Source: a virus (taxonomy: Duplodnaviria > Caudoviricetes). Taken from it: a DNA stretch of 64,000 nucleotides. The notes below the pieces were generated by a model. It did no database searches and was not told the origin of the DNA. It saw only the letters and a program-made list of their open reading frames with translations. How positions within the stretch are numbered: position 1 is the stretch's first letter; each line of letters starts with the position of its first letter. The position numbers were made by a program, and so were the translations under genes. Positions 7,101-63,797 of the stretch are shown piece after piece. The stretch covers positions 1 to 64,000 of the IMG/VR virus record IMGVR_UViG_3300005330_000014. One strand, written 5' to 3'.

Positions 7101-9343
7101 AAGTCCGCCGATTTGGGCAAGAATTTGGATAATTGAGCTTCCTGTAATTTATCTCCAATAAACGGTTTCGCGGCCAAAACATTAAAATGACTACCTTTAA
7201 AATCGTCTCTAAAAGATTCGGTTGGATCAATTACTTTTAAAGAATGTCCTTTAAGTATTTCTGAATTTGATTGTACGAATTGAGCATCTTCGTCAGTTAG
7301 TAATTCAAATCCTCTTTTCCGCGCGGCTAAACGTTTAGCTAAATCAACATTTCCATTATCATCATAAATATAACGATAACTTTTATCAATTAAAGCGCCG
7401 GAATAACCTAATTCGCTTTTAGAATATTTATTGAAATAGTTTGGAATTAATCCGCCTGCCGCATGGATTTTCTGAGCCCCCGGGGGTAATCCATAATTTT
7501 TTGCCATTTGCTGATTAAATATAGCACTACCATCTCCGCCCGCATAATTAGGTACTATATATTCATCAGTATTAGCGACTACAGTGCCACGCCGTCCACC
7601 CCCAAAATTAAAGTTAGGAATGATTTTAGGCCGCGCGCCTGCACTTGCCCCGCCTACTCCACGCTGAATATCTCTTTGTTCTTCTGCTACTGGCAAATAT
7701 CCCCCCGCTGCACGCACATTAAAAGAACCAGTATTAACATCTAAACTATTTTTAGCGGATGCAAGATTTTTAGTTGCCGCGTATAATCTAGTATCTCTTT
7801 GCAAGGATAATCCATTAATTTGTAGCATTATGCTTTTAATAGCTTCTTCTTCTTCTTTGATACTTTTAGCTGCCGCCAACCGTCTTATATAAGAACTATT
7901 TCCAGTGGCTAGAATTTGATTAATTGCGCCTTGTAAAACTGCTTGTTGTTTAGTTGAGTTAGTTAGAGAGGCATAACTAGTAAGAACGCCACCAGTATAT
8001 TGGCCCAATCCTTTTAAAATGTTAGCTAATAGAGATACCCCTACAATTAAACCCGGGCCAGATAAAGCCTGACCAATTCCCCTTAAAACTCCCTCACCAA
8101 TTTTTTGGCCCGCGCTCTTACTTTCATCTTCTTTCTGGGTCAATCCACCTAATGCAAAACTACTACCAGCAGCAGTGGCTAGATTTTTGATAACAGGCTG
8201 AAATACTAATTTGCCAGCAATTGAACTAAATTCAGTCGCATTACTTTTTAGCGCATTTAATTGAGTAGCTAATGTTTGATTTAATAGTTTATTTCTCTCA
8301 ATGGCCGCATTTGTATTCTCTCCTGCGGTAGCTAACGATCTACTATAAACTGAATTGGCATGCGCTAAATCTCCTAATAATGCTTTTAATTGGTTAATCT
8401 GTTGAATACCCGCAACTCGCTCTGAAATTGCAACTTGCTCGCTACGTGCCAGCGTTTTATAAGTATTAGCTAGATTTTGAAGAACTTTATCCGCGCTTAG
8501 TATGTTACCTTGTAAATCTCTGGTTTGTACATTAAATTGTTCTAATGCATCTAAAGTAGAAGAACGCTCTACTCGTGTAAAAATAGATTTTAAAGCATTG
8601 CCAATTACTGCTCCGCCCCGCGCCGTCGTTTGTTGCAATGACGTAGTAAAAGCAAGTAATTTATTAAAACTAACCCCTGCGTCTTGAGCAGCCGCGCCTG
8701 AACGACTAATGGCTTGTACTAAATCTTTAGAAGATACCGCAAAGTTAGCATCAACATTTGCCAACTTATTCAGAATATCAGTGGATGTTAACGCTTCTTT
8801 ATTAAATGTATTAATTGCCGAAGTTAATGCTGTAACTGATTCAGCGGCAGATAAACCAGATTGACGAGACAATTTTAAAGCATCACTAGTTCTACTTAAT
8901 ACTTCTTGTATTTTTAAACCCTGTCTAGCTAATTCATTTGCTGCATCAGACACTTCCCCAAATGATTTACCAGTATCTCTGCTGATAGCAAATAGAGCCC
9001 CCGTAAAATTTTGAAATTGAGCAATCGTTGGAGAAAGTAATACCTGAATACTTTTAAGTCTTTGCTCAGTATCAATGAAAGCTGAACTAACTTCTTTTGC
9101 TGCTCTAACTAATCCGTATAATACAGTTGTACCTGCTGTGAATGCCAAAATACGAGCTTGCGCGGACGCTAAACTTTTATCGAATTCCCGAACAGAAGAA
9201 GTTATCTGGCCTAACGCAAAGTTAGAATTAATTTTAAGATTTAAGCTTCTATCTTGAAGTAAAGTTTTAAGCCGCGCTTCTGTAGCCGATAGACTTTGTG
9301 GGTCTAGCTTTACTCCTGCTAAAATTTCAATATCTTGGGGCAT
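1112..9343 (-). CDS. Tape measure protein (2743 aa) with an internal RimK-like ATP-grasp domain
   Basis: N-terminal TP901-type tape-measure core (DTEQRLKSIQ...AISRDTGKSFGEVSDAANELARQG); long Ala/Gly/Leu helical runs; lies downstream of tail tube and chaperones. Confidence 0.9.
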   Translation of the reverse strand: MPQDIEILAGVKLDPQSLSATEARLKTLLQDRSLNLKINSNFALGQITSSVREFDKSLASAQARILAFTAGTTVLYGLVRAAKEVSSAFIDTEQRLKSIQVLLSPTIAQFQNFTGALFAISRDTGKSFGEVSDAANELARQGLKIQEVLSRTSDALKLSRQSGLSAAESVTALTSAINTFNKEALTSTDILNKLANVDANFAVSSKDLVQAISRSGAAAQDAGVSFNKLLAFTTSLQQTTARGGAVIGNALKSIFTRVERSSTLDALEQFNVQTRDLQGNILSADKVLQNLANTYKTLARSEQVAISERVAGIQQINQLKALLGDLAHANSVYSRSLATAGENTNAAIERNKLLNQTLATQLNALKSNATEFSSIAGKLVFQPVIKNLATAAGSSFALGGLTQKEDESKSAGQKIGEGVLRGIGQALSGPGLIVGVSLLANILKGLGQYTGGVLTSYASLTNSTKQQAVLQGAINQILATGNSSYIRRLAAAKSIKEEEEAIKSIMLQINGLSLQRDTRLYAATKNLASAKNSLDVNTGSFNVRAAGGYLPVAEEQRDIQRGVGGASAGARPKIIPNFNFGGGRRGTVVANTDEYIVPNYAGGDGSAIFNQQMAKNYGLPPGAQKIHAAGGLIPNYFNKYSKSELGYSGALIDKSYRYIYDDNGNVDLAKRLAARKRGFELLTDEDAQFVQSNSEILKGHSLKVIDPTESFRDDFKGSHFNVLAAKPFIGDKLQEAQLSKFLPKSADLKGFLKQNRTTGKNQGRLLDLIRKQFGNNFFIKGKEGAQGDSVYDSRVAPYYLNEILAKKDDFYLQKGIENISNREFRVTAAGVGNRSRLVGGALLRSQTGDDGIARLNHEFIGGAVKKDKLFSREGFENILSRYIANKQGLRAFNSLPANIRAGGVAGLDVLETGNTGIKKFGQAAAELLGLGRYIKGGGVAEFNFSQGEETANKHGGQPGSSGSFARPEILTAAAQALIDNNGGFAKGYVPSGKEKIEYVQRNKVGTNSSGYYLVKTNKRLFQVQAETASEARKAAKADIEHRPLNLASGYTPNYNNLSHSLLKSGASVGSKAKLLAELLGGSLGSAVNREHSAGIPYSQIKIEKSAELIDSLNPQGLAVTNTRDEPGGINQGISRAKRQGLNPKTYGVADGLIPNYADPGFTAGQLGTFGSEGGENLVRKVILGYIKNAKISEQDLALPKDQLKQTLKNTIIHALNLDPRTITASQGVGLEKIADLQIRQNRGSLKQGYYTQLDNETKARLAAERAAKQAETAQHLLDQFANSAAQKDGLFRGGSRINKLQSGLFGSSTFKDLDEEHQFNLKSRTNDISISLADRRRQRAAGLGIGASLALPILANTLTSLAPQSSVGARKFNAVGEGLGAGLSTASVLGFSPVGLAAGGAIGSLTAFVGIVNASRKSLEDYSKEIEDTKGRFEQNRNNVGGAIQAQEQLKDIIEAGGSKSEISRVSNQIQDLIKNIDDPKIRNRFIGASTADQKSDILQDLAAQQIKATSQKGLQGILEEVFTKNRNLLSQDKRNVLLTNEQRNDVGGFISNALPLSLDENKRKKQLAGLQDLSASGDVSLGGLQKVLGKLNIDNQSLDKFKKLASVEQEAIIKNVIGRAQSAAAIEKETQSLKTYTSSLLSIQRTLDRLTQATSFRLGVADIKTQGARTQAITGAQQSLSSIGEFLSPESRNRQENRIKQFELENDRINNINKISVDFADSIKDLPEIVQKAFKVFESDQPAEGGGIFGRSEKFKGRTNQIILKSLSAGDNPSDIANTIVANLGKYIKELGGPDSKENGKVAQSIQDVVNNKITIPIQLEQERAAQRKALQDNTNRLNELNISLNKKTNFLGGGNFENTANLDFSKIGAGLGQGRAIRNVLTNPFDSRLYKSRDNSFDDFFRGRPIDTDAETARRSRVYSTLGSGRLQAFQAGLFDGNPQLINETRGIVSKAEQSTIQTKLNQLIKSGRNTGDLGLVDQLRSFSPDKVKEIADLRALKQVPLDDKTRQGLEERLEKVNSLLSKSNLPSDLKGQLQGTRRGLENELGPDGVFKELNSQLTNLSQSFNEGVKGDFKQLIDSSEEAAKALSDLSSVAKLLKQGDKEQSLSDKIVDLNSQKAQYEKRKQGLLEKDTLDQNSIDKINANGPSRSVFGRKLDIGKTASALQISPKLVEQFTDLGEKYRTQENYKPADFLSELSSTIPDRDIRNKLTTQQYLASSLEGRFHLNGFSPDLSKASDNQRLIAKKQAGQLNKQIDNLHGPEHGTITDSVKELESKIQKIQDELNSLGTNSSGLLPTYSKGLLNSLHKEKQDIFRGVGGAIPSDKPYLTNVTGIGPAVVNTGESIVKNFAGTGKDAVLNRKMKQAFGINSYADGEIPNIDVGKIPEKALRYGEELVFKDDFDKIIKAYKTQGISGIKKCLNQDKEISDKLIANKADGEIPDPFKLPKSFYQYKSPNIANLYPTTLGEKYQKKFDQLVDISKLPHPAINSDSYSLPPSSNIFQPKPNYVPTLPQIPSGVSDYFKKTIDTFQNNKNNKRNFDVGQSIFGNNTTLQRNRIFASQFQGGAGYEDLDIKDQINRRPSLLSTGSLKNVSIQGSGGLDRIPLRARNADENEDFYRRNRRGNDKRYNDTIQSGSFAGNNADKLSQAADKLIAFAESQAKKAGDKNQGEAITVDQKINVQINGTINVNNDKIKSIVDEEIAKANENIKARVAALEEASKKGEPVKALPPKAPNNQGGDSGE

Positions 9344-9400
9344 TCCTTATTCCTAAAAAGTTAATAGTTAGTTTATCTATTATTTACACTTTTCAACAAG

Positions 9401-51516: not shown

Positions 51517-51535
51517 AAAGTGTTTATTTAGTTAA

Positions 51536-51697: not shown

Positions 51698-51791
51698 TAG
51701 TTTTTAGTTATAATTGATTAAACCGTTTTGAAAATCACAACGATTCCGATTGCAAGGAAGATTACAAATGGGTCCATGAGTTATTTATTAG

Positions 51792-52067: not shown

Positions 52068-52104
52068 ATTAGTATTTAGTTAAGTAGTTAAGTTAGTTAA
52101 TTGA

Positions 52105-52341: not shown

Positions 52342-52811
52342 ATTTCCAATTTAAATCAGATTTTGTGCCGTAACAAGGATTATTTCTAAAAATGTTTTTA
52401 CAGAGAAAAATGCGGTTTTTGAATGGTTTTAAAGTCTTTTGAATCCGCGCGGCCAAGTTCTGTTTACTTTCAGGCGGATTTTTTAAGTTTTTCGCGGCTT
52501 TTATTAGTACTTTTACCAAAACTGATTACTTTTTTCTGATTTTTTAGTATAGTATTTAACCCAACAAGCGCCAACGTAACCAAGATACTATCCCAGAATA
52601 TCCAGAGGATTAAAGAAATCATATAGTTATATTAAGAATTATTAAGAGTTATATTAAAGTTAATTAGTTATTACCTTTAATCGCGGGGATTCTCGAATTT
52701 TGTTCACACCGATGATACGCGCGCATACATGCAGAACGAAAAACATCATTAGGTGCCCGCTTTGCCAAATCCAAATATTTTGCCGCGAGAATTTTCTGCT
52801 CGTTGCGGAAT

Positions 52812-52841
52812 ATATTAAATCCGCCCGGCTAATCTTGTCAA
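52812..52841 (-). promoter_or_regulatory. Sigma70 promoter
   Basis: TTGACA-18-TAATAT with upstream A/T tract. Confidence 0.55.
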
Positions 52842-53386
52842 TAGGATTTTTCAAGAAAAAGATTTAGGAAAAATTATTCATTTTTATTGTTTAAATCGCG
52901 CGGCTTTACGTTTTAAATGTGTAAATATAATAGTTAAAGTTAATTATTTAAGTAGTATTGTTATTAGTATTGGATTCGCTCCGTCGCCCTAACGCTAATT
53001 AACCCTAAACGAAAAAGTAGATAACCTAAACAAAGATATATTAAACTGTTAGTATAAGCCAGCTTTTAAAAGCAATTACGACTTATATTAAATTTTTTTT
53101 GTTTATTAAGTAGCTACACTTAGACAAAATGAACATGCCAAAATAATAATAATACAGAAAACTACAAACCAAAATGTTTCTTCATTATTCATATAATTGT
53201 TGAATTATCAGAGTAAAATAGTTAATTGGAAAATTATTAAATAGTATCCGTAAGGATGATTATTAAGAAAAGGAATAAAATAAGAAGGGGAAGACTATAA
53301 TTTTTATTACAAATTTTGTTTAAATCTTAGTTAATTAGCTTGTTTTTCTATTATCTTTTTTATTATCTATATCTATCCTAGTTATT

Positions 53387-53617
53387 CTAGTTTATTTCTA
53401 ATTTAATATGCATTGTATCCGCCATACTTTGATCAAACCTATTTCTTCTCATAAAGACTTTTAATGTTTGAACTTTAAAGGCATCATCTGGGATTGTAAG
53501 ATCACTAAATGGTTTGTCCGCCGAGATTGTTTCTGCTCCTACTGTAAAAACTATTTTAGTGGCCCCGCATTCTGATTGCGCGCGTTTCAGTAATTTAATA
53601 AGTTTATTGATTTCCAT
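53387..53617 (-). CDS. Hypothetical protein
   Basis: A-rich leader. Confidence 0.55.
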   Translation of the reverse strand: MEINKLIKLLKRAQSECGATKIVFTVGAETISADKPFSDLTIPDDAFKVQTLKVFMRRNRFDQSMADTMHIKLEIN

Positions 53618-53822
53618 ATTCTTTATTTTTATTTATTTCTTCTTATTCTTCTTAATTACTTTTGTTATTTCTCTCTTTACCTTAATATCACAAACCACTT
53701 TCTTATTATTACTTACCTCGATTAATTCCTTATTAATCCATTTATAAGTAAACTTAGGGAATATTCTTTTTAACTCGTCCACCAGAGTAATTTGAGCGCG
53801 CGGCTTCATATTATTTTAGTTT

Positions 53823-54026
53823 TTACTCTGGTTTATTAATTAGTTTTTTAATTCCATATTCTATCCCATCATAACATCCTACGATAACTTTTTCCATTAA
53901 TTCTCCAGTTATATTATTCCAGTAAACTGAGCCGCCCGTAGTTTCGCCCACAAATTCCCATTCTTCTTTCTCTAATAGTTTATCGCCTTCTTCTTTAGAA
54001 ATAATTTGTTCTTCAGAGTAATTCAT
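53823..54026 (-). CDS. Hypothetical protein
   Basis: A-rich leader. Confidence 0.55.
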   Translation of the reverse strand: MNYSEEQIISKEEGDKLLEKEEWEFVGETTGGSVYWNNITGELMEKVIVGCYDGIEYGIKKLINKPE

Positions 54027-54055
54027 AAAATTTATTGTTTTTCCTTAGTTATTTC

Positions 54056-54286
54056 TTACTTATTTAAATCTTTAAATCCTTCAAGGGCGAAACCAAATCC
54101 AAGTATTGAAATTCCAAAACCATAATAGTTATCTTTTATATCTGTAGCCGCGCGAATTACAGTGTCCAACTTAATATAATTGTCCGCGCGGCTTATTAAG
54201 AATGAAGGATAAAGTAATTGGAATTTTATTTTGATATTGCGGGGACTTCTGAGGTAGAAAGTCTTATGACCAGTTGAATGAATCAT
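54056..54286 (-). CDS. Hypothetical protein
   Basis: Operonic ORF. Confidence 0.5.
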   Translation of the reverse strand: MIHSTGHKTFYLRSPRNIKIKFQLLYPSFLISRADNYIKLDTVIRAATDIKDNYYGFGISILGFGFALEGFKDLNK

Positions 54287-54529
54287 ATCATTTTTTCTCT
54301 GTAATATACCATTTACTTAGTTTGTTTAATTCTCTAATTGATTTGATTGCCTTTTTATATCTTTTAACTTTAAGATTAAAAATCCAATTATTCCAAATTG
54401 TTATGAATATGTCAATCATATTGTATTGTTTATTAGTTAAAACACCATCTATCTAAAATATCATTTTGATACTCGCCACGAATCCAACCGCCCAAATTAT
54501 CAGAGTAATTAGTATGTCTAGTCTCATGA

Positions 54530-54763
54530 TTATTTTTTTAAACTATCCCAAATACGCGCGGCCTCTTCATGATTTTCAGCAACCATATCAGCATAGAAAT
54601 CTACGTCGCAATTTTCTAAGCAATAATAAGTTAATTGTTTCCCGTTGTATTGCGGTTTATAAATCACTTTCTCAATCCTAGACTGAATAATTGATTGATC
54701 CCAAATACCAAAAACTACATCGCCAACTTGGAATCGGGCGCGTTGAAGTACTGTCATTTTCAT
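54530..54763 (-). CDS. Hypothetical protein
   Basis: A-rich leader. Confidence 0.55.
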   Translation of the reverse strand: MKMTVLQRARFQVGDVVFGIWDQSIIQSRIEKVIYKPQYNGKQLTYYCLENCDVDFYADMVAENHEEAARIWDSLKK

Positions 54764-54893
54764 AATTTTTATTGATTTTTTTGTTTAGTTATTTTCTTCT
54801 GCCGTTAGGCTATCTCTGTAATCCGCCGCCGCGTGGCTTTATATATGTCCACCAATTCTCTTATTGTTTAGTTATTTGGAGTTTGTAATGAGG

Positions 54894-55202
54894 TTAATCA
54901 ATGTGCTGATTAATTATTGCTGCGATGTCGCCCAAGGATGCCCTGACTGAATTAGGTCCATGTCCATGCTCGCAAATTATAAAACTGTCTTGCAGATGTT
55001 GAGCGAGCGTGGCCACGTTTGGTCTTTCACTTTCTTCTTTAACTTTATCTTCCAAGTCTTTATTATACTTGTTTATTGAATTTACAATTTCATTATGAAT
55101 TGGTAATGTAACTCTATAGAAAATCGATGGAATCGCAAACCATATTAGCCGCGCGATTAATCCTAGTATCTTCAATAACAATTGAAATTGAGTATTATTC
55201 AT
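54894..55202 (-). CDS. Hypothetical protein
   Basis: AACT leader. Confidence 0.55.
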   Translation of the reverse strand: MNNTQFQLLLKILGLIARLIWFAIPSIFYRVTLPIHNEIVNSINKYNKDLEDKVKEESERPNVATLAQHLQDSFIICEHGHGPNSVRASLGDIAAIINQHID

Positions 55203-55237
55203 AATAGTTTTTAATTAGCTAGTTTTTAAATATTTTA

Positions 55238-55576
55238 TTATCGTTCGTCAATCATATGGGCTGAATATGTAGCTTTTGCAGTAAAGCCGCGCGGCGGCAA
55301 TTGTACCCGCTTACCTTTACAACAATGACTTTCGCAGAAGTAACCCGTTTTCTTTGCGCGGCTCAAATCTTTTTTATCCACAAAGTTTCGTATGTATACT
55401 TGTTTAGTTTTTAAATTAATTTGAATGCGAGCCATTTCTCCACAACTCCCATATTCAACAATCGCAAAATGAGTAAATCCTGATTGTTTCCAGTCAGGAG
55501 ATACAATCTCACATATTAGCAATACTTTTAAATTGTCGCCACCGATTCCGCGCGGATTACTAAGTTTGATATTCAT
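55238..55576 (-). CDS. Hypothetical protein
   Basis: Operonic ORF. Confidence 0.55.
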   Translation of the reverse strand: MNIKLSNPRGIGGDNLKVLLICEIVSPDWKQSGFTHFAIVEYGSCGEMARIQINLKTKQVYIRNFVDKKDLSRAKKTGYFCESHCCKGKRVQLPPRGFTAKATYSAHMIDER

Positions 55577-55610
55577 ATCATTATATAAGTAGTATAATAT
55601 AGTTTGTTAG

Positions 55611-55805
55611 TCAGTCAGTTAATTTATGGATATCAGGGATTTTAGAATGCAGTTTTAAGTACGAGTTGTGACTATTAACGCGGAATTCAATCATTGAATC
55701 GTCAGTAAAGTAAATACCTACCCAATCGCCGTCTAGCCCAACTTGGGCAGTATCCGCACGGACTTCTTTAATTGTTTTACCTTTAAGCTGATCAAATAAA
55801 TGCAT
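55611..55805 (-). CDS. Hypothetical protein
   Basis: (AACT)n leader. Confidence 0.55.
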   Translation of the reverse strand: MHLFDQLKGKTIKEVRADTAQVGLDGDWVGIYFTDDSMIEFRVNSHNSYLKLHSKIPDIHKLTD

Positions 55806-55822
55806 ATGATTAGTTAGTTTAA

Positions 55823-56614
55823 TTACTTAGCCAAATACAGCCATTGGCACCCGGGGGACTTCAATTGTTTCAATACTTTAACTGCACATTCAGCAATTTT
55901 ACTTAGTAGTTTATCAGTAATTTTGAAACAGTCGGGAATATTTTCAATTAGTTCGGTAGGGTAAGGATATTTATTAATCAAGTTATGCTGTAGCTGATCA
56001 AATTCATCATTATAACCACCCAAATCACGCAAATAATTATTCAGTTTAACTACTTGTTTGGATTTGATTTTAGGAGATTTCATCGATTTCAATCCAAGCA
56101 GTGTTTTAACTTGTTTTAATAATCTTTGATACTCGCTAAATTCATCATTTTCCATTCTATCCCAGCCCTTATTTTTCTTTTTCAATTCTTTATCAACTAC
56201 TTCTTTAATTTTTGGCAGCAAAATTTCTGTAAATAGCAGTTTAGATAGTAATTCATTAAAATCATCTCCATCAAGCATATCACTGCCCAATTGCGCGATT
56301 GCCACCCGTTTCAAGCCTTGGGCGCGGGCCTGTTTAGATGACCATTTCAAATCATTTAATTGTATTTTAAAATCCCTAACGTCTGGATGCACGCAATCAG
56401 GTTTATCATTATGAGGCAAACCCATTGCGTAATTAACGGCGGCTTCAACGCACATTTGACCCTTGCGCGGGCGACCTAATCCACAGGACAAACCAAAAGA
56501 TAATACTTTAACTACTCGTTGAGCAGTATCTTTAGTGGGCGTTTCCACTTCTTCACTCGGGCGCAAGTCAGAGAATTTAACGTTAGTGTGAGTCTTGGTA
56601 TTGGATGTTTTCAT
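55823..56614 (-). CDS. Hypothetical phage protein (GQMCVEAAV...PH.D.P.CV.P.VR.F.I.LND..WSS..ARA.GL)
   Basis: 263 aa ORF with a conserved-looking Cys/His/Asp segment; function unknown. Confidence 0.65.
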   Translation of the reverse strand: MKTSNTKTHTNVKFSDLRPSEEVETPTKDTAQRVVKVLSFGLSCGLGRPRKGQMCVEAAVNYAMGLPHNDKPDCVHPDVRDFKIQLNDLKWSSKQARAQGLKRVAIAQLGSDMLDGDDFNELLSKLLFTEILLPKIKEVVDKELKKKNKGWDRMENDEFSEYQRLLKQVKTLLGLKSMKSPKIKSKQVVKLNNYLRDLGGYNDEFDQLQHNLINKYPYPTELIENIPDCFKITDKLLSKIAECAVKVLKQLKSPGCQWLYLAK

Positions 56615-56854
56615 TGATTTGTTTGTTTTTATTTATTGCGGTTAATTAGTTAGGTTTAGTTAATTAATTCTTTTCACTTCAACTTCAATATCCCAAACGG
56701 GCGCGAGTTCGTTAAGGATATAAGCATAACCAATTCGTCGGAGGCGCGCGGGCTTAGATTCGCGCGGATTCGTGATGATGAAAAACCAAATTAGGAAAAG
56801 AATTTCACCGAATAGATAGAATAGAATGAATGAGAGCATAGTTAAGTTAGTGAA

Positions 56855-57127
56855 TTAGTTAATATTTGTAGTAATATATCCCCAAACATCCGTTTTGGGT
56901 GAGTGTCCATCGCCCGATTTCAAATAGCACAAATCCAAATATTTGTTTGGCGTGCCATTTCGCTGATTAAATACTTGAATGGTTGCTAATTGTTTGCCTA
57001 TTGAGTCTAACCAAGCTTTTTCATTTAGTTTTTTAACTTCAAAGGCCGCGCGGGCCTCTTCCATCGAAACAAACATAACGCTGGCGGGATATTTTTCAGG
57101 GTAAACGATTGCTTTATCTTTATCCAT
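56855..57127 (-). CDS. Hypothetical protein
   Basis: AACT leader. Confidence 0.55.
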   Translation of the reverse strand: MDKDKAIVYPEKYPASVMFVSMEEARAAFEVKKLNEKAWLDSIGKQLATIQVFNQRNGTPNKYLDLCYLKSGDGHSPKTDVWGYITTNIN

Positions 57128-57154
57128 AAAACAAAATTAGTTATTTATTGAATC

Positions 57155-57397
57155 TTATTGAATCAACCATTTGAAAGCTGCTTCGTCGCCCGGCTGCGCG
57201 GACAATTTCAGAGAATGAGATTCTCCAAAACACTTAATTACTGATTTATAACCCGGAGTTATTTCGATAAATCCCGCACTAATGGGCGTCCAACCTTGGA
57301 ATTTCCGCGCGAAGTCCGCGTGTTCAATCCACTTGGGGAAAATGAAACCGTCAAAGCCCGTTGTTCCTTCAAATATGATATATTTACCTGATTGCAT
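57155..57397 (-). CDS. Hypothetical phage protein (KYIIF...H...SAGF...C.GES.SL.L...D)
   Basis: Clean ORF. Confidence 0.6.
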   Translation of the reverse strand: MQSGKYIIFEGTTGFDGFIFPKWIEHADFARKFQGWTPISAGFIEITPGYKSVIKCFGESHSLKLSAQPGDEAAFKWLIQ

Positions 57398-57419
57398 GAT
57401 TTTTAATGATTTAATTTAT

Positions 57420-57608
57420 TTAGCGTTCAGCGTCAACAAGCTCCCCATATTCCCTTGCCAACAAGACAAGAGTTTCTCCCATCTTTTTATGATCGTACGC
57501 CCGAAATGCGGCAGTATATTTCATAGCTGGAAATTTAATTGTTATTTCCGTGGGGTTTTTGGAGTCGATTAGTATTTCAGCTTTGAGAGTAATGATAGAG
57601 CGAGCCAT
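57420..57608 (-). CDS. Hypothetical protein
   Basis: Operonic ORF. Confidence 0.5.
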   Translation of the reverse strand: MARSIITLKAEILIDSKNPTEITIKFPAMKYTAAFRAYDHKKMGETLVLLAREYGELVDAER

Positions 57609-57644
57609 AGAATTTAGTTAATTAAAGTTATTTGAATTGTTTAG

Positions 57645-58055
57645 TTATTCAGCACGATCATTAATTTTAATTGGATTACTAAAGAATCGACTGTCACCCG
57701 TCCAAACGAAATTACCGCCGAACATCGTCCATTTACCAGAGACAATCAAAGAAACAGGAATCGCGCGGAGTCGAATGCCGTAGCACATATCTTGTACAAT
57801 AATGAAATCGTCATTAAATCCTTGTTTAGCTAAATCATTAGCTAGATTCCTAGCCTCTATTTGAGAGTAACCAAGAGCTTCGCAGCCGCGCGTGTTCAAG
57901 CTAAGTGAATCCGGGGCGGAAGTCCGTTCAGCTTTATAATGACAATCAACCGTTTTAGAGCGTTTAGATACTCCATTTTTGCTACCATCACCATAATCAG
58001 AGCGATAGATATCAGCGGGCAGGCAAGGAGTTTTAGAAGAGAAACGAATTTTCAT
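57645..58055 (-). CDS. Hypothetical phage protein (MFGGNF..T.DSRF...PI.I.DR.E), probably leaderless
   Basis: ATG 6 nt after the -10 box of promoter 58062-58090. Confidence 0.7.
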   Translation of the reverse strand: MKIRFSSKTPCLPADIYRSDYGDGSKNGVSKRSKTVDCHYKAERTSAPDSLSLNTRGCEALGYSQIEARNLANDLAKQGFNDDFIIVQDMCYGIRLRAIPVSLIVSGKWTMFGGNFVWTGDSRFFSNPIKINDRAE

Positions 58056-58061
58056 ACCTTT

Positions 58062-58090
58062 ATCTTAAATTGTTTGGCGGAATCAGTCAA
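58062..58090 (-). promoter_or_regulatory. Sigma70 promoter (leaderless transcript)
   Basis: TTGACT-17-TAAGAT-6 nt-ATG. Confidence 0.75.
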
Positions 58091-58124
58091 GGATTAATTT
58101 TCTTTAAATTCGTCTTTGATTTTC

Positions 58125-58487
58125 TTAATAATTTGAATCTTGTCCGTTAGTTTTCTTAATTTGTTTAGTTACTTTCTTGGCTTTAGCCGCCGTTTTAATG
58201 ACACTTTCGCGCGGCTCAAATTCATAAGTTACTTTATCAATAGTTATTTGTTTAATACCGTCAACAGAGATATTCCGATAGTCTTGAACTGAAGTATCAA
58301 AAACAGTAATTAACTTATAATCTTTTGGTTTATAAGGTTGTTGCCCGCCTTGTAAATGAGCAGTGACATGACGCCTGCATACCATCTTTCTTTCTTCCCC
58401 CGTGCTGCGTTTGATAAATACAACTGAAAAGATACGATTGCCCGCCGCATCAATTGCCGCTTTGATATTTTCGTAATTTGGTTTCAT
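58125..58487 (-). CDS. SH3-fold/WYL-like nucleic-acid-binding protein
   Basis: FSVVFIKRSTGEERKM...LITVFD....YRNI pattern. Confidence 0.6.
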   Translation of the reverse strand: MKPNYENIKAAIDAAGNRIFSVVFIKRSTGEERKMVCRRHVTAHLQGGQQPYKPKDYKLITVFDTSVQDYRNISVDGIKQITIDKVTYEFEPRESVIKTAAKAKKVTKQIKKTNGQDSNY

Positions 58488-58535
58488 AACTTACTTATTA
58501 TTTTAATTATTTTAATTGTTTAGTTAGTTAATTAG

Positions 58536-58621
58536 TGAGAAGCGGGACTACCACCCCGTTTATTGCTCTTGGGCTTTCAGGCTGATTTCTCGAAGTTCTA
58601 GCCTTTTCATCCCGCTTCTCA
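58536..58621 (-). ncRNA. Intercistronic structured RNA (12-bp closing stem, three-way junction)
   Basis: TGAGAAGCGGGA/TCCCGCTTCTCA perfect stem enclosing two hairpins. Confidence 0.5.
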
Positions 58622-58624
58622 AAT

Positions 58625-58942
58625 CTAGTCTAGACTATCGGGCGCGTTAGTCAAGCACTTTTTATTTCGGCAAATATATCTATTTTTCTTTTTGTTAAAG
58701 TTACCTTCACGGTGACAGTCGGGGCATTCATCTTCAAACAAAGCAATTTTAATAGAAGTACCTGAAATATTCCGCAATGCTTCCATAAATTGACTCCGGT
58801 AAATCGCGCGGCTTTCAATGTCCATGAAGGGGAAATGCGTTTCAATTTCCACACCAGTAGCTTCCAATCCAACGCTTCTGTCCCCATCATTTGCTTCAAT
58901 AAATAGTTTAAATGAAGTGTTGGAACGTTTATTTGTTTTCAT
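58625..58942 (-). CDS. Hypothetical protein with C-terminal zinc ribbon
   Basis: CPDC...CRNKKC. Confidence 0.6.
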   Translation of the reverse strand: MKTNKRSNTSFKLFIEANDGDRSVGLEATGVEIETHFPFMDIESRAIYRSQFMEALRNISGTSIKIALFEDECPDCHREGNFNKKKNRYICRNKKCLTNAPDSLD

Positions 58943-58953
58943 TTGTGTGTTAT

Positions 58954-59205
58954 TTAGTTCTTAAAATAGTTATTCATATAAGTCTTAAGATGATCGTCAT
59001 TGCAAGTTCGATATACTTCATCCATTAGTTTTTTGTTCGGCCACAATTTATTTTGAGCCGCGCATTTTGGACTCGTTAAAGCAAGGTGAAGAATCCTCCA
59101 ACGGACGCTCGGGGGAATCACTTTGATTTTATGAGGATTGCAGAGCGCAACCGCTTTATCCATCGCCTTATCTAACTTCTCTTTTAATTGTCCTTGAATT
59201 TTCAT
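58954..59205 (-). CDS. Hypothetical protein
   Basis: Operonic ORF. Confidence 0.55.
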   Translation of the reverse strand: MKIQGQLKEKLDKAMDKAVALCNPHKIKVIPPSVRWRILHLALTSPKCAAQNKLWPNKKLMDEVYRTCNDDHLKTYMNNYFKN

Positions 59206-59226
59206 AATATTTAAAGAATTAATTAG

Positions 59227-59544
59227 TTAAACTATTTCACTTTCCAATTTGATTAACTTTTTAAGCAATTCTCCGCCGATGCATGAGTAAAGAGAGTGAC
59301 TGTCTTCTTCGCGTTGCTGACTGATTGCCCAAGCTTTATTTTCGGGGATATTATAAGTATATTCACAATCTTTTAAATGATGAACATTAGCCGTGCCAAC
59401 AAATTGTTCTTCATCCAACCTTTCTTGCTCGGCGCTTTCAACCGTCATTGTCATTGCGTCCAATGTTTCCTTGGGGAAGTAGCCACGCGCGGCTGCCCAT
59501 TGGAGAGTTTCCATTTCGGCATTTGAAAGAGTGATTTGATACAT
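59227..59544 (-). CDS. Hypothetical acidic protein
   Basis: AACTAA leader. Confidence 0.6.
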   Translation of the reverse strand: MYQITLSNAEMETLQWAAARGYFPKETLDAMTMTVESAEQERLDEEQFVGTANVHHLKDCEYTYNIPENKAWAISQQREEDSHSLYSCIGGELLKKLIKLESEIV

Positions 59545-59569
59545 TGTATTATTTAGTTAATTATTTAGA

Positions 59570-59749
59570 TTAAGCAGAAAGTGTCATTTCATCAGAATTA
59601 AGATATTTAATATATTCACGTTCTGTATAAATAGAAGCTAGTTTTTGTTCATGATGTTTTAACCGCGCAGCCAAACGTTTTGCGTCGCGAGTATTTTTTA
59701 CCGTGAAAATTTCGGGGCGGGTATGCGCGGAGTAGGCAATAACTTTCAT
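59570..59749 (-). CDS. Small protein not in track (MKVIAYSAHTRPEIF..., 59 aa), probably leaderless
   Basis: ATG 6 nt after the -10 box of promoter 59756-59784. Confidence 0.6.
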   Translation of the reverse strand: MKVIAYSAHTRPEIFTVKNTRDAKRLAARLKHHEQKLASIYTEREYIKYLNSDEMTLSA

Positions 59750-59755
59750 ACCTTA

Positions 59756-59784
59756 AATTTAATCCCTTTTGTTTAATCCGTCAA
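59756..59784 (-). promoter_or_regulatory. Sigma70 promoter (leaderless transcript)
   Basis: TTGACG-17-TAAATT-6 nt-ATG. Confidence 0.75.
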
Positions 59785-59821
59785 GAGAAATCTTGTGGAT
59801 TTTACCTTGTATATTTGACCA

Positions 59822-59859
59822 GTACAAACAGCAAGCCCGGCGCTTTTCGGGCACCGGGC
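59822..59859 (-). terminator. Terminator of candidate sRNA B (hairpin + 9 nt + GTAC)
   Basis: GCCCGGTGCCC-GAAA-AGCGCCGGGC, TTGCTGTTT, GTAC. Confidence 0.65.
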
Positions 59860-60055
59860 TCTATTGTTTCCGCGTTTCCTTGCTATATTTAACTCTAAGT
59901 TAACTAATTATTTTTCGGCTCAGGAGGCGGGGAGCGTCTTTCGACTCACGTATACTTCATTATAGTTTCCTTATTTAGTTTAATGGTTAATGGTTAATGG
60001 TTTAGTTACTTACTTTATTGCCGCCTAACTGCATGACACGCGGCCCATCCTTGGC
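59826..60055 (-). ncRNA. Candidate sRNA B (~230 nt), apparent paralog of sRNA A
   Basis: Promoter-to-terminator unit with only minigenes; shares GCAGT..AGGCGG.AATA and GTC-loop-GAC..CCCGCCT-N5-GCCGA blocks with A. Confidence 0.55.
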
Positions 60056-60061
60056 AAATCC

Positions 60062-60090
60062 ATTTTACCACTTCAAATCCAATCAGTCAA
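60062..60090 (-). promoter_or_regulatory. Sigma70 promoter of sRNA B
   Basis: TTGACT-17-TAAAAT; TGGTAAAATGGA identical to the sRNA A promoter. Confidence 0.75.
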
Positions 60091-60119
60091 GAACTATTTT
60101 CAAAAATTTTTAATGCTCC

Positions 60120-60386
60120 TTAATCTTTCAAATCCTCGAATTGTTTAATTTCTTTAAATGTTAAAGTCGTGATACTTCTTTTTTGACCATGTAAATGTTT
60201 AATTATTGGGTGCATCGCGCGGCCACACAGCTTTAACCCAGCTTCGACTCCAGCAATAAAATCTTGTTCAATAGCCCATGATTGGGCGTTCGGTTTCTTA
60301 GCTATTCCTTTACATTTAAATCGGGCGCATATTCCTAATGCTAAAACGAATACTTCAATTGCCAGCATTCTATTATTTGTGCTCAT
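60120..60386 (-). CDS. Hypothetical protein
   Basis: Clean ORF immediately downstream of hairpin 60420-60480. Confidence 0.6.
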   Translation of the reverse strand: MSTNNRMLAIEVFVLALGICARFKCKGIAKKPNAQSWAIEQDFIAGVEAGLKLCGRAMHPIIKHLHGQKRSITTLTFKEIKQFEDLKD

Positions 60387-60419
60387 TTATTACAGTTAAT
60401 TATTAATTAAAATTCTAAA

Positions 60420-60480
60420 GTACAGCAATCCGCCCGATTCGCTGCTCCTAGTCCATAGGCGGGGCAGTCAAATCGGGCGG
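60420..60480 (-). terminator. Terminator/attenuator-like long hairpin with weak U tract + GTAC
   Basis: CCGCCCGATT/AATCGGGCGG outer stem, ATTGCT, GTAC. Confidence 0.55.
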
Positions 60481-60732
60481 GCGTCTTTATTCCGTGTTTT
60501 AGCGTTAAGTTCTAATTATATTTAATCTAGTATAACAATAACAAGTTTTTATTTAGTTATTTAAGGCGGTGAGCGGATTTTCATAAATTATTTAAGCGAG
60601 TTTCGCGTTTAGTTTTCGTATCCTCAGATACACAGTATGTCACTATTTAGTTAACTTGGCGGATTGGTGGCACTCTTCAATTAGTTATTTAGCTACATAT
60701 ATGAGGGATTTAGATTCCCTGAGTCGATTTAC

Positions 60733-60760
60733 AGTCTAGCATATCCGCCGGGACTGTCAA
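60733..60760 (-). promoter_or_regulatory. Sigma70 promoter
   Basis: TTGACA-16-TG-extended TAGACT. Confidence 0.65.
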
Positions 60761-60830
60761 CGAAAATCTTTGATTTTTATTTTTGAAAAACTTTTGGGAG
60801 TTAGTTTCTTCCTCCCATTTAGTTAATTAT

Positions 60831-61235
60831 TTACTTGCGAGACTTCTTAGGCGCGGAAGGCTTTGCCTTTTTAACCGCCTTAGCGACGGGCTTTGCCTTG
60901 GTCTTGCTCTTAGGCGCGGTTTTAACCTTGCGCTTGGCAGGGGCAGCTTTAGCCTTACTCTTAGCCTTAGCTTTGGCGCGCACAAAGCGCGGCTTATTGC
61001 TCAGGGTTGGCTTTGCAGCTTTTTCGCGCGGCGGCTTATTTGTCTTAATTGCCTTATCGGAGATTTCCACGGGAGCAGAAACAGCAACAGGAGGCGCGGC
61101 TTTCGGCTTAGGTTCGGGCGGTTGAATCTTGGGCATCGTGCGATAGGAAGCGCGCGGATTATTTTGTTTTGCAGCATCACGACGGGCTTTGAGACGGGCA
61201 AAACGATCATGGCGGAGAATTGCATTTTTAGTCAT
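60831..61235 (-). CDS. Histone H1-like Lys/Ala/Pro-rich basic protein
   Basis: KAKAKSKAKAAPAKRKVKTAPKSKTKAKPVAKAVKK low-complexity tail; AACTAA leader. Confidence 0.7.
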   Translation of the reverse strand: MTKNAILRHDRFARLKARRDAAKQNNPRASYRTMPKIQPPEPKPKAAPPVAVSAPVEISDKAIKTNKPPREKAAKPTLSNKPRFVRAKAKAKSKAKAAPAKRKVKTAPKSKTKAKPVAKAVKKAKPSAPKKSRK

Positions 61236-61277
61236 ATTTTTAGTTATTTTAGTTGTTTTATATAGCGATACTATTAA

Positions 61278-61457
61278 TTAATTACGGGGATGTTGCTTCC
61301 AGCGAAGCAGCCAACCGTAAGCGTGGGACGTTTTCGCCGCGTGCAATCCACTGCCACCCTTTGCTTTTGCCGCGTCATTCAATTCTTTAATCGCTTCATC
61401 CGCTGAAATTTCGCCTGACTTCACGCGTTCTTTCAGCATCATTTGAGAGATGTTCAT
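61278..61457 (-). CDS. Small protein not in track (MNISQMMLKERVKSGEISADEAI..., 59 aa)
   Basis: (AACT)n leader; clean ORF. Confidence 0.55.
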   Translation of the reverse strand: MNISQMMLKERVKSGEISADEAIKELNDAAKAKGGSGLHAAKTSHAYGWLLRWKQHPRN

Positions 61458-61552
61458 ATGTTTTAGTTAGTTAATTAGGTTACTAAGTACTGAGTTGTTT
61501 TGTTTGTTTTTAGTTACTGATTATTTAGTTGTTTAATATGTAATATGTTTAG

Positions 61553-61747
61553 TTATTCCGCCGCTGCATTGACTGGGGCGCGGAAACGATTGGAGATTGC
61601 CCGGCGAAAAACCGCTTTCGGCAAGCAATCGTACTTCTTTTGAAAGTGCCGCGTTCCACCCGTCAGAGCTTGCGCGGTGTCATGGCGCAAAGTCCCAAGT
61701 TGTTCGTTGTAGTCGGCGGCGCTTTTGGCATGGATGATGTTGTTCAT
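61553..61747 (-). CDS. Hypothetical protein, probably leaderless
   Basis: ATG 6 nt after a weak -10 (GAAACT) of promoter 61754-61781. Confidence 0.55.
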   Translation of the reverse strand: MNNIIHAKSAADYNEQLGTLRHDTAQALTGGTRHFQKKYDCLPKAVFRRAISNRFRAPVNAAAE

Positions 61748-62018
61748 GGATGCAGTTTCGCAGGATTTTAAAAACAGTCAACAACTTTTTTCGTTTATTT
61801 TTGCTAAAGGAAATTACCGGGATTTGTTTATTTCTTAAACCCAACCAAAGCATCTTTTACTTTTTCAACTAAAATTTGAGGCAATCCATGATATATATAT
61901 TTCCCTATATAATAGGGAATTAATTCCCCTACCATCAATTGCACATGGTTATCAGTTAAATATTTGTCTTCTTCTTTAGTTAAGGAAACGGTCGAAGTAA
62001 TTTGCATAAGTTTATAAT

Positions 62019-62213
62019 TTATTCTTTAAAATTCTTTAAGGCCGCGCGGACTTCATTTAATAGTTTATCTGAAATATTGCCAATTAGAATATCATTCATT
62101 CCGGGGCAAGGTTCAAATCTAAGTAATCTTTCCCACAAACTTCTTTTGTTTTTATATATATAATCCCATTCTTTTTGAGTTAAAGTCAAATTAGTAATTG
62201 TCGAAACTTTCAT
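62019..62213 (-). CDS. Hypothetical protein
   Basis: Clean ORF downstream of tRNA-Cys. Confidence 0.55.
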   Translation of the reverse strand: MKVSTITNLTLTQKEWDYIYKNKRSLWERLLRFEPCPGMNDILIGNISDKLLNEVRAALKNFKE

Positions 62214-62239
62214 GATTAATTATCTAGTTTCAAATTAAG

Positions 62240-62311
62240 ACTCCCGTGGCTGAATCGAACAGCCGAATATCTGGATTGCAAACAGATGCCTTCCCACTTG
62301 GCGAACGGGAG
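62240..62311 (-). tRNA. trnC: tRNA-Cys(GCA)
   Basis: CTCCCGT/ACGGGAG acceptor; U73; loop TT-GCA-AT (31-39 mismatch); GGCTG-TTCGATT-CAGCC T arm. Confidence 0.82.
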
Positions 62312-62330
62312 ATTGAAATTGATTAGTTAA

Positions 62331-62693
62331 TTAACCCCAATCAAACATTTCATCAGCTTTCTCAATCTTTTTCTTAATTGCTTCTTCCTTAAATCCAAAG
62401 AGTTTATAATAATTAATGATATCCTTGTCAGGCATTCCTTGATAAATCATTTCCCTAATATCTTTTAGTTTAATTACTCGTTTAGTGGCGCGCGGCTTTT
62501 CATTCAGCATTGTCAATCGCCGCCAGAAATGCCCGCCTTCCAAGGCAATATTCCCAATACGATTTGCATCATACGATTTAATTACTACTAAATACTTGCG
62601 CCCGGTTTCTGAATTTTCCGCGCCAAGATAAACAATCCCATGATTTTTATAGTTTGTATATTTGCGGCCCTTAATGATATCGGAAGAATCCAT
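62331..62693 (-). CDS. Hypothetical protein
   Basis: Clean ORF. Confidence 0.55.
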   Translation of the reverse strand: MDSSDIIKGRKYTNYKNHGIVYLGAENSETGRKYLVVIKSYDANRIGNIALEGGHFWRRLTMLNEKPRATKRVIKLKDIREMIYQGMPDKDIINYYKLFGFKEEAIKKKIEKADEMFDWG

Positions 62694-62825
62694 GAACTTT
62701 ATTACTTATTTACTTATGAATATTAAACTTAAAATAAGACTTGGAATCCAGTATTAGAACTATAGCTGCAACTACGAGCACGATGAACACGCAGCCACAA
62801 GCAAAGCCAAGAGCAAACATATTGA

Positions 62826-63152
62826 TTAATTAGCTAAATTATTGAATGACACTTGGACATTTTCATTCGGCGGCAATTGAATAAATCTATAATTACGATC
62901 TGGGTCTGCCCAATGATTATTATTAATATCAATTTGCTCGCATCGATTAGGAGAAATCATAATTAGAAGCTTAAATCCCACCACAATTCTGATATCTGCT
63001 TCTTCACGATTTGCTGATGTACGTAAAGGCGTTCCATCTGAATGAACTACTCTATATACTCCATGCCGAAGATTCCTTGGGTGAATAGCATCCCAAGTTA
63101 GCAATTCGGGCTCAACGGGAAAAGCTTGACGATTAGTAGTAATGTTTAACAT
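62826..63152 (-). CDS. Hypothetical protein
   Basis: AACT leader. Confidence 0.55.
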   Translation of the reverse strand: MLNITTNRQAFPVEPELLTWDAIHPRNLRHGVYRVVHSDGTPLRTSANREEADIRIVVGFKLLIMISPNRCEQIDINNNHWADPDRNYRFIQLPPNENVQVSFNNLAN

Positions 63153-63200
63153 ATTGAATTATTGATTAGTGATTTAGTTGTTTAGTTAAAACAGTTGGCA

Positions 63201-63237
63201 AACAAAGAAAGCCGCGCGGCCAAGCAACTCGGCGGAC
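63201..63237 (-). terminator. Probable terminator containing GCCGCGCGGC
   Basis: GC-rich hairpin followed by TTTCTTTGTT; no GTAC. Confidence 0.5.
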
Positions 63238-63303
63238 TTCATTATAAAAGTATTTAATTTAGGAAATTGGATAGTCATGTTTTTTTTGAATTATTTAAGT
63301 TAG

Positions 63304-63558
63304 TTAGTTAACTGTTTGCGTATTCGTTACCGGCAAAATTACATATTCCATACAATCCCCGGCTTTTTCGATTTGCTCCAAACAATCGCGTTCGGTTAAG
63401 CCATCATCATACTTTTCAATATTTCTGCCATATTGATTTCGTGTAGGCTTTTTAAGTAAACCATTTTCGTCAACATAATAGATACGATATCTAAAATCGA
63501 CTTTTACTTTTCTTTCAATCGGTTTTTGAACAATTTTATGAATTCCACAGTTAGCCAT
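63304..63558 (-). CDS. Hypothetical protein
   Basis: Clean ORF. Confidence 0.55.
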   Translation of the reverse strand: MANCGIHKIVQKPIERKVKVDFRYRIYYVDENGLLKKPTRNQYGRNIEKYDDGLTERDCLEQIEKAGDCMEYVILPVTNTQTVN

Positions 63559-63614
63559 ATAATAATAATTAGTAATTAAATTAGATAATTAGGTATTAAA
63601 TAAATATTGTTATG

Positions 63615-63797
63615 TTAACAGTTATTAACGGAATAACTCCACTCTTGGGGCAGCGTATTACAAATGCTTTGGACTTGTTGAACAGTATAGTTAATATAGT
63701 AACCGTATGTCTGCATTTCGCCGCGCGGCGTCGTTTTAACGCAAACCCGGAATTTTCCCTCGATTTCGGGCGCGTAAATAATATTTTGTTTTTTCAT
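63615..63797 (-). CDS. Hypothetical protein
   Basis: AACT leader. Confidence 0.5.
   Translation of the reverse strand: MKKQNIIYAPEIEGKFRVCVKTTPRGEMQTYGYYINYTVQQVQSICNTLPQEWSYSVNNC

Follow-up and report, generated by a model that had tools for sequence, protein, structure and literature searches.

Short G/C-only clusters with a CCGC-based vocabulary are dispersed through an AT-rich rhizosphere phage genome

The stretch of DNA analyzed here (the window) comprises the first 64 kb of a single contig, G000, a phage genome of 208,233 bp (IMG/VR record IMGVR_UViG_3300005330_000014), and our analysis concerns the GC-rich palindromic octamer CCGCGCGG that recurs within it. The GC content is 34.8% for both the window and the whole genome, close to the one third assumed in an initial annotation of this DNA. 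The gene content is that of a phage, including a large terminase gene (TerL; 30391-32298, minus strand), a tape-measure-like open reading frame (ORF) of 2743 amino acids (1112-9343, minus strand), tail genes and seven tRNAs. The same sequence was assembled independently, with 100% identity, from two other Joint Genome Institute (JGI) samples and is present in at least three to five rhizosphere metagenomes, which excludes an assembly artefact; the public runs (contigs) of G000 show one single-nucleotide polymorphism (SNP), the remaining assemblies being identical. Among 50,697 phage records, a nucleotide search found none that matched the terminase region, and a protein-level search for similarity to known phages returned only matches below 30% identity.

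The window contains exactly 18 perfect copies of CCGCGCGG between 7319 and 63728, where the initial annotation had counted at least 17. Thirteen lie within ORFs (codon phases 0/1/2 = 3/3/7) and five are intergenic. The first copy (7319-7326) is located in the tape-measure-like ORF, in phase 1, where it encodes part of the peptide LAARK, and the second (26500-26507) in ORF 25916-26599 on the minus strand, in phase 2, with the peptide VSRAAF. Three copies follow in plus-strand ORFs: 37312-37319 (ORF 37163-37720, phase 2, EHRAAK), 39863-39870 (ORF 39686-39973, phase 0, KPRGHK) and 41898-41905 (ORF 41452-41991, phase 2, ASRAEA). The remaining 13 of the 18 copies fall within a dense stretch at 45000-64000, composed of small genes mostly on the minus strand, as the initial annotation had noted for 45-64 kb; they represent 13 of the 57 copies in the genome, against 5.2 expected (P = 0.003), and the hexamer CGCGCG reaches 8-12 copies per 5 kb there, compared with about 4 genome-wide. 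Intergenic copies in this stretch are found at 48203-48210, 48460-48467 (with more G/C clusters alongside), 49214-49221, 52445-52452 and 63212-63219. The minus-strand ORFs that carry copies are 49722-50132 (49968-49975, phase 1, VSARHE), which encodes the Lys/Ala-rich basic protein P0121; the small ORF 51536-51697 (51661-51668, phase 2); 54056-54286 (54184-54191, phase 2, ISRADN); 55238-55576, with two copies in phase 0 (55287-55294, PPRGFT; 55548-55555, NPRGIG); 56855-57127 (57046-57053, phase 2, EARAAF); and the small ORF 62019-62213 (62042-62049, phase 2). The last copy (63721-63728) is in phase 1 of the small plus-strand ORF 63612-63806. The peptides named in the initial annotation (LAARK, VSRAAF, KPRGH, ASRAE, ISRAD, PPRGF, NPRGI and EARAA) were all recovered at these sites. 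As for a proposed placement in terminators, the copy at 49214 does form the apex of the sole strong terminator-like hairpin (49201-49235, minus strand), but terminator-like matches were no more frequent than in shuffled sequences, and a terminator role was rejected. A GC island at 44-52 kb of the window (42-45% GC, compared with 35% genome-wide) coincides with the top CGCGCG density and spans an AAA+ (RuvB/clamp-loader-like) gene at 46795-47772 together with small ORFs.

Dinucleotide-preserving shuffles of the window yielded a mean of 0.28 copies of CCGCGCGG and a maximum of 2, against the 18 observed. The whole genome contains 57 copies of CCGCGCGG and 17 of the extended word GCCGCGCGGC (0.082 per kb), the reversed control word of the latter having no copies; the CCGCGCGG copies are distributed over codon phases 0/1/2 as 7/15/15, plus 20 that are non-coding or at gene edges. 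When synonymous codons were shuffled within genes, a procedure that preserves every protein and the per-gene codon usage, 3.2 +/- 1.5 copies were expected in genes, against 37 observed. The enrichment therefore persists under both the dinucleotide-aware and the codon-aware null, the challenge that the initial annotation had singled out for it. The dozens of near-matches reported there were also borne out, as the heptamers CCGCGCG/CGCGCGG gave 74 strand-matches in the window against 2.7 expected, with 38 half-matches besides the 18 full sites. The flanks of the 57 copies are unrelated, save that G/T is preferred ahead of the word and, symmetrically, C/A behind it.

Treating the octamer as the unit, as the initial annotation did, proved untenable. 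The genome-wide observed/expected ratio (O/E) of CCGCGCGG under Markov models of order 0 to 6 falls through 328, 80, 19.5, 5.8, 4.1 and 1.2 to 1.0 (0.98 at maximum order), so that the Markov-corrected enrichment that had been suggested as a check stands at order 3 and is gone at orders 5 and 6, because the sub-words of the octamer are equally enriched; CCGCGC retains an O/E of 1.73 at maximum Markov order, which places the excess in shorter words. The CGCGCG core occurs at 168 sites genome-wide (0.8 per kb), of which 58% are preceded by C and 58% are followed by G, and the number of sites with both (57/168) equals the product of the two (odds ratio 0.87). The outer bases of CCGCGCGG are independent, and the octamer is not a cooperative unit but one word within a general habit of G/C-only clusters. 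One-letter deviants of CCGCGCGG number 84, 28, 9 and 25 at positions 1/8, 2/7, 3/6 and 4/5, respectively, and those to A or T comprise 75 transitions and 13 transversions. Another word with the same core is CTCCGCGCGGAG, and GGCGCGCC is an example of a scrambled G/C octamer, given as a contrast to CCGCGCGG. Z-DNA-forming (CG)n tracts are an unlikely explanation, as CGCGCGCG and GCGCGCGC have one copy each against 168 of CGCGCG, and longer tracts are not favoured.

CCGCGCGG is the commonest word of this G/C-only cluster population. The genome contains 515 G/C-only runs of at least 8 nt, against about 110 expected under a geometric run-length model, and the window (1-64000) contains 164 such dispersed clusters against about 40 expected under the same model; the synonymous-codon shuffle gave 143 runs where 426 are observed. 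Runs of 2-5 nt are depleted and runs of 6-13 nt strongly over-represented, with those of at least 6 nt making up 4.6% of the genome and 13% of its G+C, while the rest of the genome has 31.6% GC. The run-length distribution has a shoulder at 6-8 nt and halves at 9 nt, and as non-coding DNA shows the same shoulder, coding constraint was rejected as its origin at 7-8 nt. Runs of at least 8 nt have an overall density of about 2.5 per kb (genes, 2.2-2.7; spacers, 2.1), which barely varies with protein conservation (1.95-2.67 per kb). Their spacing is Poisson-like, with a coefficient of variation of 1.09 for clusters (range 1.09-1.23), and a genome-wide search for periodic spacing of clusters found none. 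The vocabulary is broad, since 97 of the 136 G/C-only octamer classes occur in G000, and it is polar: clusters start C-rich and end G-rich (CCG...CGG 72-74, compared with 7-9 for CGG...CCG and 0 for GGG...CCC) and are built around CCGC/GCGG. CCGC followed directly by GCGG yields the palindrome, which arises because both strands carry the same preference. It should be noted that the tape-measure-like ORF (1112-9343, minus strand) contains 33 G/C-only runs of at least 8 nt (4.0 per kb), well in excess of the 0-2 per kb found in the other large virion genes.

The same habit is found in three further lineages. The closest relative, G001 (IMG/VR UViG 3300014208_000031; 167,664 bp), has a TerL 65% identical to that of G000 and shares with it 87 orthologue pairs with a median amino-acid identity of 42%. 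Two more lineages, L091 (a Logan SRR29078117 contig of 17.9 kb) and L093, were found via the methyltransferase described below, and the conserved DNA of the four lineages is about 68-71% identical. G001 contains 25 copies of CCGCGCGG, the same run excess and a correlated vocabulary (Spearman 0.67). CCGCGCGG is the top outlier word in G000, G001 (25 against 4.4 expected) and L093 (5 against 0.4), whereas in L091, which has only 2 copies of CCGCGCGG, the top outlier is CCGCGG (29 against 7.8 expected, or 1.6 per kb), an alternate hyper-abundant palindrome of the same clade; the run excess is common to L091 and L093. By contrast, in about 70 contigs whose TerL is near 40% identical, both CGCGCG and a dispersed run excess are essentially lacking, the mild run excess of some distant relatives being a local 3-kb patch. 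The habit is therefore a trait specific to a small clade, and a general physical effect of AT-richness was rejected, as relatives with 31-34% GC lack it.

The target of the force behind the clusters is double-stranded DNA, rather than protein or RNA, as indicated by the use of all codon phases, the equal density in coding and non-coding DNA, the sense/antisense symmetry and the survival of the enrichment under the codon-aware null; here the initial annotation, which had placed the force on DNA, was right. Non-palindromic cluster words occur in sense:antisense ratios of 36:36, 15:15 and 14:14 and in all codon phases, so that a strand or orientation bias such as that of Chi, DNA uptake sequences (DUS/USS) or FtsK-orienting polar sequences (KOPS) was not found, and a role at the RNA or translation level is ruled out by this symmetry and phase spread. 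G/C-only codons account for 17-32% of isolated Ala/Arg/Pro/Gly residues and for 45-61% where two or three such residues adjoin, and the motif encodes 26% of [SAPT]AR, 70% of PRG and 22% of RA[GAVDE] peptides. Among motif copies in orthologues of G000 and G001, 11 of 13 face unrelated residues in G001 (VSRAA vs TSILS for the copy at 26500; EDRAD vs ENDKV), and the word occupies the same alignment column in G001 for only 2 of 13 octamers (one being the copy at 7319) and 5 of 46 hexamers. Whether a conserved A/R/P/G dipeptide is in the G/C-only state is independent between the two genomes (odds ratio 1.34, p = 0.31), and amino-acid identity within runs (0.43) equals that elsewhere. The comparison of G000 with G001 thus gave no positional conservation of sites beyond neutral expectation, which argues for action on density, or for a stationary drive, with single positions being irrelevant. 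An origin by insertion was rejected, as only 18 of 273 clusters touch an alignment gap; clusters arise by substitution. In this they differ from the GC clusters of yeast mitochondria, which are mobile palindromic insertions of 30-50 bp (PMC9154068, PMC7846184): both are short GC-rich islands across a very AT-rich genome, sometimes within genes, but the phage clusters measure 6-11 bp and have no shared flanks. Forces at the DNA level that rewrite codon choice and some amino acids matter for host prediction from codon usage and for k-mer-based viral binning.

A second layer of the signal consists of missing words. Of the 64 hexamer palindromes, 20 are absent from the 208-kb genome despite Markov expectations of 5-74 copies, including CCGCGG (74 expected), TTCGAA (38), GCCGGC (31), GGCGCC (27) and CGGCCG (24), as well as AGATCT, GGATCC, TCCGGA, CTGCAG and CGATCG. 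Five of the eight G/C-only hexamer palindromes have no copies (CCGCGG, CGGCCG, GCCGGC, GGCGCC and GGGCCC), and the tetramers GATC, GTAC and GGCC are depleted to 0.54, 0.55 and 0.65 of expectation, respectively. The absent sets differ by relative: CCGCGG has 0 copies in G000 and L093, 27 in G001 and 29 in the 17.9 kb of L091, while CCCGGG has 27 copies in G000 and 0 in the other lineages. This purge looks like the restriction avoidance described for phage genomes (e.g. Rusinov et al. 2018, PMC6286503), and the differing sets suggest hosts rich in Type II restriction systems. Because of the purge, 10 of the 16 G/C-only octamer palindromes, which contain an absent hexamer, are not present, and the dominant palindrome switches between lineages; the C-rich start and G-rich end of clusters result from GGCC depletion together with the absent hexamers. 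Restriction avoidance removes words, however, and cannot create a three- to five-fold run excess plus a five-fold excess of CCGC words.

What remains after the purge was estimated by a purge-aware simulation, in which the pattern of G/C versus A/T was fixed, C or G was drawn by a run-trained Markov model of order 0-3, and absent hexamers were rejected. The 57 copies of CCGCGCGG observed compare with 6.3-10.9 in these simulations (z = 13-16), and the 106 of CGCGCGGC with about 20-22, so that avoidance alone does not explain the prominence of CCGCGCGG. With the pattern fixed, observed counts in G000 also exceeded expectation for CCGCGCG (198 vs 63), GCCGCGC (156 vs 58) and CCGCCGG (72 vs 26), and the CCGC excess given the run pattern reached z = 9.8 in G000 and 8.3 in G001. 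None of the five other G/C-only octamer palindromes that the purge permits exceeds 4 copies (range 0-4). A word-specific, CCGC-based excess of roughly five-fold remains after the purge, and the signal splits into three measurable layers: a G/C packing habit, a preference for CCGC words and a restriction-avoidance filter.

With regard to enzymes that might read such words, the initial annotation had proposed a search of the rest of the genome for a CGCG-type methyltransferase. This search identified one N6_N4-family methyltransferase, with SPPY as motif IV, at genome positions 166,658-167,893, outside the window. Its N-terminal region is nearest to solved N4-cytosine enzymes, including M.PvuII, and an orthologue carries the JGI annotation cytosine-N4-specific, so that the enzyme is probably of the N4-cytosine type. 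It is present in all four lineages with 59-63% identity. A C5 methylase (PF00145), Vsr (PF03852) or DUF559 (PF04480) had no match in the 208-kb genome; base modification of the TGT/DpdA type was not found either, PurZ and modification pathways beyond TGT not having been searched for. The methyltransferase, which has a Cys-rich insert, lies in a three-gene clade module at genome positions 165,245-168,957 (L081:19-3731), between genes for a 468-amino-acid and a 245-amino-acid protein. The former looks Mre11/SbcD-like, judging by its metallophosphoesterase motifs DxH, GD and GNH, and we read the latter as a putative PD-(D/E)XK protein with RecB/Cas4-type motifs (GTxxH, D, DxK and QxxxY) and not those of Vsr; Pfam support for these neighbours consists of a faint PDDEXK_1 match. 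Two unrelated phage contigs with methyltransferase homologues (L099 and L101; 57-58% GC) contain 0 CGCGCG and 0-2 GCGCGC in 18-21 kb, a strong avoidance in the opposite direction.

The closest phenomena described to date are the highly iterated palindrome HIP1 and its alternates (PMC4390886) and phage restriction avoidance (PMC6286503), and our literature search for CCGCGCGG and for GC clusters in phages found nothing describing such a habit. The analogy with HIP1 (GCGATCGC), for which alternate highly iterated palindromes are also documented in cyanobacteria (Elhai 2015, PMC4390886; Xu et al. 2018, PMC5861425), was drawn in the initial annotation and holds in several respects. Both words are GC-rich palindromic octamers over-represented tens to hundreds of times, occur in genes (in all phases) and in spacers, have deviants at the two outer positions with a hexamer core that stands out, are replaced by an alternate word in sister lineages, and reach a site density near 1 per kb (0.8 per kb for CGCGCG in the phage). 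A DNA methyltransferase is encoded in both cases, although the phage enzyme (N6_N4, SPPY) is not proven to be cognate. The differences are that HIP1 belongs to cyanobacterial chromosomes and the present word to a phage genome; that the phage word is embedded in a far broader population of G/C-only clusters; that its flanks are statistically independent, with no positional conservation or periodicity; and that the HIP1 core, CGATCG, is absent from the phage. Hyper-abundant palindromes of the HIP1 type were recognized 30 years ago, yet to our knowledge there is still no consensus on what they do. A signal of this kind in a 208-kb phage comes with a small set of genes that could cause it, and if the cause is phage-encoded, the methyltransferase and a few replication and repair genes peculiar to the clade offer candidates that can be tested.

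The clusters are the product of a strand-symmetric, position-indifferent and clade-inherited process on double-stranded DNA, with an effective footprint of about 8 bp, a CCGC vocabulary and a palindrome-avoidance filter. This process builds clusters of G and C alone, about 6-11 bp long and with the shoulder at 7-8 bp, on a background of 31.6% GC. At poorly conserved positions the word overwrites amino acids, and where Ala/Arg/Pro/Gly residues adjoin, G/C-only codons are chosen; the near-total purge of other GC palindromes decides which words survive. As to the nature of the process, our tentative preference, held a little short of an even chance, is that a single factor left the clusters as its footprint by reading about 8 bp of G/C-only duplex, within which it would prefer CCGC; the leading candidate for this factor is the methyltransferase. 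The factor would probably be phage-encoded, since the vocabulary is retained in lineages that differ in purge set and so probably in host. It might either need sites at a set density, in the manner of a HIP1-type tag, or bias repair towards them; in both cases density would count and position would not. A reader is favoured because of the flat density across spacers and across variable and conserved genes, and because of the sharp length cut-off.

Several observations weigh against such a reader. The independent flanks of CCGCGCGG and its O/E of 1.0-1.2 at orders 5 and 6 do not indicate a dimeric protein reading the full palindrome. The methyltransferase is the leading candidate, but its link to the motif is unproven, and four unrelated phages (36-66% GC) that carry homologues of about 50% identity have no cluster excess, for which reason the enzyme was rejected as a sufficient cause. 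A host-family repair system may be the source instead. The breadth of the vocabulary (97 of 136 classes) is as compatible with a context-dependent bias in mutation or repair as with a reader, and a neutral drive accommodates equally well the edge-biased decay, the independence of the lineages from one another and the absence of positional conservation. Finally, since the other G000 assemblies are identical bar one SNP, gains and losses of clusters are not polarised.

A neutral, context-dependent mutation or repair bias is accordingly possible, if on the unlikely side. Under such a bias, changes from A/T to G/C would be favoured, or changes from G/C to A/T suppressed, beside an existing G/C, leading to a function-free growth of clusters in which CCGCGCGG would be the most reachable restriction-safe word. 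The cooperative use of G/C-only codons is as expected from this process, and so are the concentration of deviants at cluster edges (84, 28, 9, 25) with transitions at 75:13, the broad vocabulary with Poisson-like spacing, and positions that are conserved no further than the amino acids dictate. The clade also encodes its own DnaE, primase, RecA and deoxynucleoside triphosphate (dNTP)-pool enzymes. Contrary to the expectation for neutral growth, spacers (2.1 per kb) are no denser than genes (2.2-2.7), with conserved genes barely lower, and the abrupt halving after 8 nt, non-coding DNA included, is not predicted by a simple nearest-neighbour bias. In addition, the roughly five-fold excess of CCGC words recurs in lineages with saturated synonymous sites, and equally AT-rich distant relatives lack the habit. 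In E. coli, Dcm/Vsr very-short-patch repair reportedly drives an oligonucleotide excess (Bhagwat and McClelland 1992; Merkl et al. 1992), and methylase-linked repair of this type could raise the frequency of a word, along with its one-off variants, in DNA irrespective of coding; the phage, however, has no detectable C5 methylase, Vsr or DUF559 that could act as driver, and its methylase-adjacent putative nuclease is of the RecB/Cas4 type. In the dNTP-pool context, we observed a clade-conserved set of nucleotide-pool genes at genome positions 172-176 kb (L095, L096), also found in the syntenic contigs L089, L091 and L093, which comprises dGTP_diPhyd_N (PF18909), nucleoside deoxyribosyltransferase-like, NT5C-like and NUDIX genes beside those for DnaB and primase.

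A more specific version of the reader hypothesis, which we regard as unlikely, is that the clade, a small one of AT-rich soil jumbo phages, has a system of its own that both writes and reads CCGC-centred G/C-only octamer tags, for example through N4-cytosine methylation read by the Mre11-like and RecB-like neighbours of the methyltransferase. If this were true, the tags would serve to label phage DNA as self or to direct repair, and would represent the first HIP-type tag with maker and reader both viral, offering a tractable model for the still-unexplained HIP1.

It is improbable that CCGCGCGG is a by-product of restriction avoidance, that is, that clusters of another origin were present and this word became prominent as other GC palindromes were purged. 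Such a by-product would fit the absence of five of the eight G/C-only hexamer palindromes, the 10 of 16 octamer palindromes that hold an absent hexamer, the cluster polarity that follows GGCC depletion and the absent hexamers, and the dominance of CCGCGG in L091, where this hexamer is unpurged. The purge-aware simulations nevertheless fall well below the observed counts (6-11 vs 57, and 20-22 vs 106 for CGCGCGGC), the other permitted octamer palindromes did not rise alongside CCGCGCGG, and G001 tolerates CCGCGG (27 copies) yet is enriched in CCGCGCGG.

The initial annotation also raised the possibility that the motif mirrors the genome of the host. Regarding the identity of this host, GGAGG is found upstream of only 1 of 225 genes (ORFs of at least 100 amino acids, whole genome) and upstream regions are A-rich, which points to a phylum that makes little use of Shine-Dalgarno sequences, most plausibly rhizosphere Bacteroidota; a caveat to this assignment is the presence in spacers of five sigma-70-like extended -10 promoters (TTGAC-N-TGnTAAAAT), two in the window (49477 and 60062) and three beyond it (65506, 86379 and 96883). 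Cyanophages share HIP1 with their hosts, and the present phage could in the same way copy a host oligonucleotide bias through shared repair or an uptake/self-recognition word. Five soil Bacteroidota genomes contained 0-41 copies of CCGCGCGG in 3.4-7.2 Mb. None of 401 evenly sampled Bacteroidota genomes plus those of 5 soil genera had GCCGCGCGGC clearly above its reversed control word, and the highest density among them was 0.04 per kb (against 0.082 per kb in the phage), in GC-rich genomes in which the control word was commoner still. Host mirroring was therefore not seen in 406 genomes of a phylum that is itself inferred, and taking into account that the vocabulary is common to relatives that differ in purge set, and so probably in host, we consider this explanation very improbable.

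Finally, it is extremely improbable that the sites bind the two small basic proteins encoded at 49722-50132 and 60831-61235 (both minus strand), suggested in the initial annotation as nucleoid or packaging proteins. In favour of this idea, the two have a strongly basic character and Lys/Ala/Pro-rich, histone-H1-like C-terminal tails, and the motif is dense where their genes are located. On the other hand, a Pfam search of the two gave no family match, nothing ties them to the GC word, tails of the histone-H1/AlgP type bind DNA without sequence specificity, and the independence of the flanks argues against a dimer reading the palindrome. In one metagenome, the gene at 49722 carries in-frame insertions of 27 nt and 3 nt at 49761/49801, which look like repeat-number variation.

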